Of a stretch of DNA of 64,000 nt, positions 14,320 through 57,933 are shown piece by piece (position 1 is the first letter of the stretch; each line of letters opens with the position of its first letter). Under the pieces are notes generated by a model, which ran no database searches, was not told the origin of the DNA, and saw nothing but the letters and a program-made list of their open reading frames with translations. The stretch spans positions 34,596,001-34,660,000 of the forward strand of contig OX597824.1 of assembly GCA_951406725.2 (NCBI GenBank), written 5' to 3'. A program made the translations under genes and the position numbers. This DNA is from Octopus vulgaris (Eukaryota).

Positions 14320-14382
14320 ATGGAACGATTTTCAACGGTAGTTATCCTGGCACTGTTGTTTATTTGCAACCTGGCAGATAAT
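14320..14382 (+). CDS. IL17R-like coding exon 1 (signal peptide [21 protein letters not shown])
   Basis: Acceptor ttacag at 14305-14310, ATG at 14320, hydrophobic core, donor GTAAGT at 14383 (phase 0). Confidence 0.75.

Positions 14383-57933: not shown

Follow-up and report, generated by a model that had tools for sequence, protein, structure and literature searches.

A gene of Octopus vulgaris lying within a 64,000-nt stretch of contig OX597824.1 (the window; positions without a contig prefix refer to it) is transcribed and derives from octopus two-domain IL-17 receptors through deletion of domain D1; positive selection acts on one part of the retained domain (D2) in the octopus copies of this gene. 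Two FnIII domains are the defining feature of IL-17 receptors. The reading preferred here, with somewhat less than an even chance of being right, is that the gene would encode a variable partner subunit of IL-17 receptor complexes.

The gene model contained seven exons, all on the forward strand, with GT-AG borders at six of six introns and a coding sequence of 1272 nt (423 aa). The coding part of exon 1 (14320..14382) encodes the signal peptide (aa 1-21) and is followed by a 16-nt micro-exon running from phase 0 to phase 1 (29234..29249), whose ortholog in the two-domain paralogues A, C, and D is exon 2, of 28 nt. Three exons encode the FnIII domain D2: exon 3 (35156..35310; strands A to C', aa 27-78), exon 4 (36047..36106; aa 79-98 with strands E-F, the same stretch being conserved from copy to copy), and exon 5 (42250..42352; aa 99-133, comprising the G strand and an FG loop that contains four Cys). 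Exon 6 (44977..45132) encodes a Ser/Thr/Lys stalk and the transmembrane (TM) helix (~aa 160-183), and exon 7 (57215..57933) the SEFIR domain, a SEFEX-like extension, and the tail with the stop codon. The protein was therefore laid out as signal peptide, one FnIII domain, stalk (~25 aa), TM helix, and an IL-17RA-like SEFIR-SEFEX tail. A hydrophobic N-terminus (KD11 3.2) and a single TM peak at residue 160 (KD19 3.0) gave a type I single-pass topology; signal peptide and TM helix were called from hydropathy, plus a helix at residues 159-185 of the predicted model for the latter, and not with a dedicated predictor. The mature ectodomain measured 136-141 aa up to residue 160, the range being set by the cleavage site, and contained eight Cys (residues 28, 55, 91, 112, 114, 120, 123, and 138) and four sequons (N82, N107, N147, and N156). 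An earlier note, made from the letters of the window, had given a phase-consistent model of 423 aa, a mature ectodomain of ~135 aa including the stalk, eight Cys and four N-glycosylation sequons; these held on inspection of the introns and on a recount of the translation. The translation was also identical to P0007, labeled by NCBI as a hypothetical O. vulgaris protein, a record that may derive from the same genome and so is not independent support.

The last exon, which the earlier note had taken for a SEFIR exon, matched PF08357 with 24.9 bits (open frame 57193-57930) and the whole protein with 23.6 bits, the cut-off being 23. In IL-17RA/RB the ‘qwl’ motif includes a Trp, which this SEFIR domain and those of the two-domain paralogues lack. 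Ig_ILCR1 (PF23608) was present at residues 30-130 with 54.9 bits (cut-off 27). Neither P0007 nor P0011 of Octopus bimaculoides matched ILCR1_N / IL17R_fnIII_D1, and only 27 residues preceded D2 in P0007; in the two-domain paralogues D1 matches were weak and below cut-off. Since the ectodomain contained D2 only in place of the two FnIII domains of a canonical IL-17 receptor, the protein was filed as a derived variant and not as a canonical member.

An AlphaFold2 model built from 87 sequences had a mean pLDDT of 83, with 82-95 across D2 in blocks of ten, and replaced an earlier nine-sequence fold (pLDDT 47). The model consisted of a seven-stranded FnIII domain (28-133), a disordered stalk, the TM helix, and an alpha/beta tail. 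Residues 182-380 superposed on IL-17RA 370-592 (9ot1_C; Z 18.3, rmsd 3.3, 197 aligned) and residues 188-378 aligned with 4nux 376-591 (Z 17.7, rmsd 2.8 over 178). This superposition, together with a profile alignment running through the WFE motif, identified the SEFEX extension of the IL-17RA subtype, and the top three Foldseek matches were IL-17RA/RB intracellular chains. The ectodomain model matched generic FnIII domains (Z ~10), and no IL-17RA ectodomain chain was among the matches listed in the fold searches with D2; assignment to D2 rests accordingly on sequence profiles. The family profile matched the human IL-17RA ectodomain at E ~1e-15, with D1 aligned on D1 and the first Trp of the retained domain aligned with the start of IL-17RA D2.

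The domain lost was the membrane-distal D1. Longer homologues from Octopus and Argonauta (549-570 aa) carried Ig_ILCR1 and a weak D1 signal; mapped on the window, they found the signal exon, the four D2/stalk/TM exons and the SEFIR exon, leaving residues ~27-162 unmatched. A D1 profile searched against six frames of the 64-kb window gave nothing better than E 1.4, and in the same search the full-length profile recovered five downstream exons at E 1.4e-3 or better. The gene (B1) was located in a cluster on C11 (34.55-35.01 Mb), with paralogue A upstream, tandem copies B2 and B3 downstream, and paralogues C and D following B3 on the opposite strand; paralogue E was located on C30. In paralogues A, C, and D, three D1 exons follow the micro-exon and precede the first D2 exon; matches to them were present in E too. 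In A they form a phase 1-to-1 block, so that the reading frame is kept when the block is removed.

Comparison with the paralogues placed the D1 deletion scars, with three intron remnants, at 33718..34330 on the forward strand. These were the remnant upstream of D1a (33718-33855), that between D1b and D1c (33901-34174), and that after D1c (from ~34207-34231), in the order of the paralogues. Because B1 retains the intron pieces that flank the D1 exons in A, C, and D, in unchanged order and joined end to end, these exons were excised at two places (~33.86 and ~34.2 kb); the same two scars were found in B2 and B3 (98%). Exon 1 was 18 nt shorter than that of paralogue A and lacked the Cys of its CPKP motif, and the last base of the micro-exon now gives Ser in place of Cys, so that no D1 cysteines remain. 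The window contained zero N. Two O. bimaculoides RefSeq models, P0011 (412 aa) and P0019 (424 aa), had the same D1-less architecture and were sister to B1 in the SEFIR-region tree (support 98/85). The idea suggested by the longer homologues, that D1 exons had merely been overlooked, was ruled out by the profile null, the direct splicing described below, and the scars.

Copies B2 and B3 were separated by a 100-N gap and their flanks differed by 1.1%. B3 carried a 1-nt deletion in an A-run (frameshift) and a stop at codon 185. It could be an uncollapsed allele of B2, a form without a tail, or a pseudogene; on the first of these readings the copy number would be two rather than three. The SEFIR exon of paralogue C (C11:34856847-34857144, reverse strand) was broken by deletions and a stop, its exons extending up to 34910613. 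With ectodomain and TM exons present, C is a pseudogene or, possibly, a tail-less membrane decoy.

Transcription was assessed from assembled contigs; as no listed run was recorded as RNA, the case rests on GT-AG joints in these contigs, which were read across exons 1 to 4. A 330-nt contig of run X7 agreed with exons 1 and 3 at every position and had 16 letters between them: past 14382 it continued with the micro-exon and then the start of exon 3. An X18 contig read the same, and in an X1 contig the joint was likewise present, there with the B2 form of the micro-exon. In total, exon 1, micro-exon, and exon 3 were directly joined in three of the four runs examined there (X1, X7, and X18, from three studies); the fourth, X3, had no contig on exon 1. 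The joint of exons 3 and 4 was also found in three of four runs (X1, X3, and X7). Contigs spanned exon 1 from 14281-14301 onward, and separate contigs carried the exon 1 of the paralogues, diverging from B1 at 14364. Exon 7 was present in 20 of 24 listed runs. Extra exons restoring a second FnIII domain, which the earlier note had named as grounds for abandoning its proposal, were absent between exon 1, micro-exon, and exon 3 of the spliced contigs. The half-sized SEFIR receptor with a single-FnIII ectodomain is thus borne out at the DNA, transcript, and cross-species levels. Rather than a general lophotrochozoan form, the gene is a derivative produced by deletion, set in a cluster among two-domain paralogues of normal build. 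The function suggested in the earlier note, a co-receptor or altered binding of IL-17s, would be plausible.

A profile search (107 matches) revealed a further, older D2-only SEFIR group: P0029 of O. vulgaris (C11:22.57-22.71 Mb), P0040 of Argonauta, and the P0048 cluster, with 11 aligned members that were mostly unnamed Logan records and included one from Sepia pharaonis. These proteins had a hydrophobic N-terminus, D2 after 40-58 residues, a stalk, a TM helix, and a SEFIR domain, and shared ~22-26% identity with the octopus gene. Six proteins with short N-termini (P0047, P0067, P0095, P0096, P0107, and P0114; gastropod, bivalve, or unnamed) were left out of the D2-only set; those checked had at best a weak hydrophobic stretch at the N-terminus, or shared a cluster with a longer protein, and they may be partial models. 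A tree of the cytoplasmic region (P0007 residues 186-385), using 36 hand-chosen rows of the 87 in the alignment, nested B1 in the two-domain Octopus/Argonauta clade (support 100/99) and placed the older D2-only group apart (100/98). Monophyly of B1 and the older group was rejected (p-AU 3e-22) in an AU test run after a quick tree had already been seen. On this phylogeny, the inferred history is that D1-less receptors arose independently twice in cephalopods. The older lineage persists in several cephalopods, so the D2-only architecture can be stable; its O. vulgaris gene has a first intron of 103 kb (C11:22.60-22.71 Mb). Two oppositely oriented genes of the older lineage, P0029 and one copy, occupied C11:22516438-22705445; their SEFIR exons were 92% identical and their ectodomain exons only 33-48%, repeating the pattern of a conserved tail and a divergent D2. 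The reverse change, D2 multiplication, was seen in P0038 (Elysia crispata, partial), in which four tandem stretches matched the D2 part of the profile.

Divergence among the three tandem copies was concentrated in D2. Exon 3 differed by 6-9% (1.0-1.5% in its flanks), exon 5 by 15.5-16.5% (1.2-1.8% in its flanks), and the SEFIR exon by 0.3-0.7%. Nonsynonymous and synonymous changes in D2 numbered 29.8/2.2 for B1-B2 (dN 0.131, dS 0.032, P 0.015), 25.3/0.7 for B1-B3 (P 0.0098), and 28.2/0.8 for B2-B3 (P 0.0043), giving dN/dS of ~4-11 from three pairs that are not independent. D2 changed at 7-11 times the rate of introns (P <=5e-11 against intron flanks). The tails of B1 and B2, compared over 240 codons, showed two synonymous changes and no nonsynonymous one. 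Within D2, 24 of 29 variable sites fell in the C-C' hairpin and the FG loop/G strand, which make up 53 of 106 residues (P 6e-5, post hoc, the region having been picked after the variable sites were seen). This variable surface also differed in contigs from other individuals. Between O. vulgaris and O. sinensis, the D2 of B1 differed at 8 of 67 residues (partial model) and that of receptor D at 1 of 108; between O. vulgaris and O. bimaculoides the figures were 44 of 106 for B1 and 14 of 108 for D, the orthology of D in the latter species being taken from similarity. Among two-domain paralogues, D2 dN/dS was 0.68, 0.86, and 1.38, which indicates that some D2 divergence is general. Gene conversion is an unlikely source of the D2 variants, given that the FG loop is shorter in all three copies than in the paralogues from which they would have been imported and that synonymous change was near zero.

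The human complexes described in PMC9477748 and PMC9637376 supply a frame for what D2 might do alone. In IL-25-IL-17RB, site 3 (linker helix plus D2 loops) buries 760 Å2 and is the largest single site, while D1 supplies sites 1 and 2 (499 and 636 Å2), or 1135 of the 1895 Å2 of the interface (PMC9477748). The tip-to-tip contact that is needed for signaling comes from D1 alone (PMC9477748, PMC9637376), and IL-17RC takes no part in this D1 dimer interface (PMC9637376). With D1 absent, the octopus protein lacks the D1 tip-to-tip dimer surface of the IL-17RA subtype as well as ligand sites 1 and 2, and would be expected to bind an IL-17 dimer weakly on its own. Its D2, equivalent to site 3, might instead dock where an IL-17 dimer, already bound by a two-domain paralogue, leaves one face free, in a mode resembling IL-17RC, which joins without tip-to-tip contact. 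The docked receptor would then bring its SEFIR-SEFEX tail into a CIKS/Act1 assembly, and the varied C-C' and FG/G surface of each copy could set which IL-17s are answered or allow escape from a pathogen protein binding there.

Candidate components of such a complex were present in the genome. There were 64 IL-17 domain matches (PF06083), and two-domain paralogues adjoin the octopus gene. An exon for the C-terminal half of an Act1/CIKS-like SEFIR domain was found at C5:38190873-38191133 (reverse strand, L070; E 1.3e-8 to TRAF3IP2). Most of the PF06083 matches lay in two large tandem clusters at C1:131.7-132.5 Mb and C1:14.76-15.02 Mb; for O. bimaculoides, PMC8353272 cites 31 genes, roughly half of the 64 matches here. 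As nothing is kept but the site-3 side and the unchanged tail, and partners, IL-17s, and a CIKS-like exon are present, we infer a low-affinity partner subunit; change in the retained domain that is far faster than in neighboring introns points to a variable one, acting in immune signaling. Against this role, D1 makes up most of the human interface and site 3 also needs the D1-D2 linker helix; the SEFIR score is barely above cut-off and the ‘qwl’ Trp is absent. A predicted complex of two IL-17 chains (L063) with residues 22-140 reached a score of 0.01 and a mark of 0.34, for one of the 64 ligands and without alignments or controls, and so weighs neither for nor against the role.

The ligands themselves bear on what drives D2. 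In the 11 of 64 IL-17 loci compared, every one of the 55 pairs had a dN/dS below 1 (median 0.36), and the D2 of receptor D was slow; such purifying selection counts against a partner subunit that follows its ligands, and slow IL-17s and a slow two-domain receptor beside a fast B1 D2 fit an outside pressure better than host-ligand tracking. A somewhat unlikely alternative is that D2, once freed, serves as a natural monobody. Its variable C-C'/FG face would bind a molecule of a pathogen or parasite, and the signal would pass through the conserved SEFIR tail and CIKS with no need for IL-17. This reading would account for the high D2 dN/dS with merely 0.7-2.2 synonymous changes, the renewed difference of the variable surface in O. 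sinensis (8/67) and in other individuals' contigs, the purifying selection on the IL-17s examined, the concentration of variable sites in 53 C-C' and FG-G residues (a region chosen post hoc), and the birth and death seen in the cluster, with the frameshift and stop of B3 and the broken SEFIR exon of C. Yet three copies are few for a sensor repertoire, and the monobody matches of the fold search reflect just the shared FnIII fold; pathogen attack on a cytokine receptor, or young duplicates splitting the existing IL-17s, would also give positive selection. The selection pattern, with slow ligands and two-domain receptors and a fast D2 surface, fits a non-self target nearly as well as a partner subunit. 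The wider proposition that D1 was deleted twice in cephalopods and that the Octopus D2 became a hypervariable non-self surface on an unchanged SEFIR/CIKS tail, in an ongoing arms race, is rather improbable.

A brake or decoy was considered more doubtful still. Such a receptor would join complexes or bind CIKS and, having the wrong spacing without a D1 tip, dampen IL-17 or TLR signals, as IL-17RB tip mutants suppress signaling (PMC9477748) and IL-17RD and zebrafish IL-17RAL inhibit MyD88/TLR signaling (PMC11087794). B3 would be a tail-less membrane D2, ending at the stop at codon 185, if the A-run deletion is a sequencing error. A brake offers no obvious cause for strong diversifying selection on D2, however, and the tails of B1 and B2 are intact and purged of amino-acid change. 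Binding of D2 to another host ligand was judged very improbable. Least credible was an artefact or a dying gene, that is, D1 exons hidden in an assembly gap, a mis-modeled gene, or a neutrally drifting pseudogene. The N gap between B2 and B3 and the possibility that B3 is an uncollapsed allele lend it something, but the window is N-free, intron remnants abut at the scars, contigs from three studies splice across the missing block, P0011 repeats the architecture in O. bimaculoides, and neutral drift cannot push dN several-fold above dS or raise it to 7-11 times the rate of introns. This reading is already largely refuted. The partner subunit remains the preferred, if tentative, role.

Several other elements were recorded in and around the locus. 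A strong canonical SEFIR exon was found at C3:176455798-176456250 (reverse strand, L001), where the open frame of 609 aa ends in a poly-Gln tail, and two weaker SEFIR-like exons at C11:34391537-34392298 and C11:60543960-60544532 (both reverse strand). The last intron of the gene contained a GC-rich island (50421-52113; 45-48%) with four ORFs of 94-221 aa that had no Pfam match and that may resemble Polinton-like or viral remnants. Near-identical LINE reverse-transcriptase copies (96% over 1.37 kb) flanked the gene at 6507-7826 (forward) and 60217-61458 (reverse). Transposon fragments in the introns (18290-19021, 45524-46631, and 53643-53999, reverse; 43420-44106, forward) included Transposase_1, presumably mariner-type, DDE_Tnp_1_7, presumably piggyBac-type, and further RT pieces. 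A 94-bp tandem repeat (13917-14273; 3.8 copies, 95% matches) stopped 46 bp short of the start codon; at the window end (63566-64000) a 50-bp satellite began.

Recent structures have made D1 tip-to-tip contact the organizing principle of IL-17 signaling. An expressed D1-less receptor, found in two Octopus species and with an architecture that apparently evolved twice, is a natural test of IL-17 binding by D2 alone and of whether SEFIR signaling needs the tip geometry. The selection signal points precisely to the surface that counts, giving a way to study how an animal distinguishes its ~64 IL-17 loci, or what attacks the pathway. Among the titles and abstract openings searched, with subscription mollusc IL-17R papers beyond the scope, no single-FnIII IL-17 receptor was described and no selection on cephalopod IL-17 receptors was reported. 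Mussel receptors with TM segments at 221-243 and 13-35 appear in PMC8353272, uncommented there as to domains, and these positions suggest that short ectodomains may exist elsewhere. The protein is already in databases as hypothetical or uncharacterized; the D1-less receptor type is apparently undescribed, though a prior mention may exist.

Among known systems, the invertebrate ‘degenerated double-FN3’ IL-17Rs of PMC11087794, the main text of which makes no mention of octopus in the parts available, have a divergent ectodomain and a weak SEFIR score in common with the octopus gene. By the text, rather than the figures, of that source, they combine a degenerate double FN3 with added EGF/IgSF domains, which differs from the clean loss of one domain. 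The ILCR-1-type receptors (ILCR1_N, Ig_ILCR1, and SEFIR; paralogues A, C, D, and E) share Ig_ILCR1, SEFIR, and exon phases with the octopus gene, identity to the Octopus two-domain paralogues being 64-71%; it differs from them in the deletion of three D1 exons and in the loss of the D1-linked N-terminal Cys in both Octopus species. Like human IL-17RA and IL-17RB, the octopus protein is type I, with a D2-type FnIII domain beside a flexible stalk and a SEFIR domain with SEFEX, and the human ectodomains were matched by the family profile. Unlike them, it has no D1 ligand sites, no tip-to-tip interface, a positively selected D2, and a short post-SEFEX tail. Its likeness to human IL-17RC is a functional analogy only, namely entry into a complex without D1-D1 dimerization (PMC9637376). 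IL-17RC retains D1 for ligand binding in a tall four-domain ectodomain, whereas the octopus protein presents a single domain on a stalk of ~25 aa.
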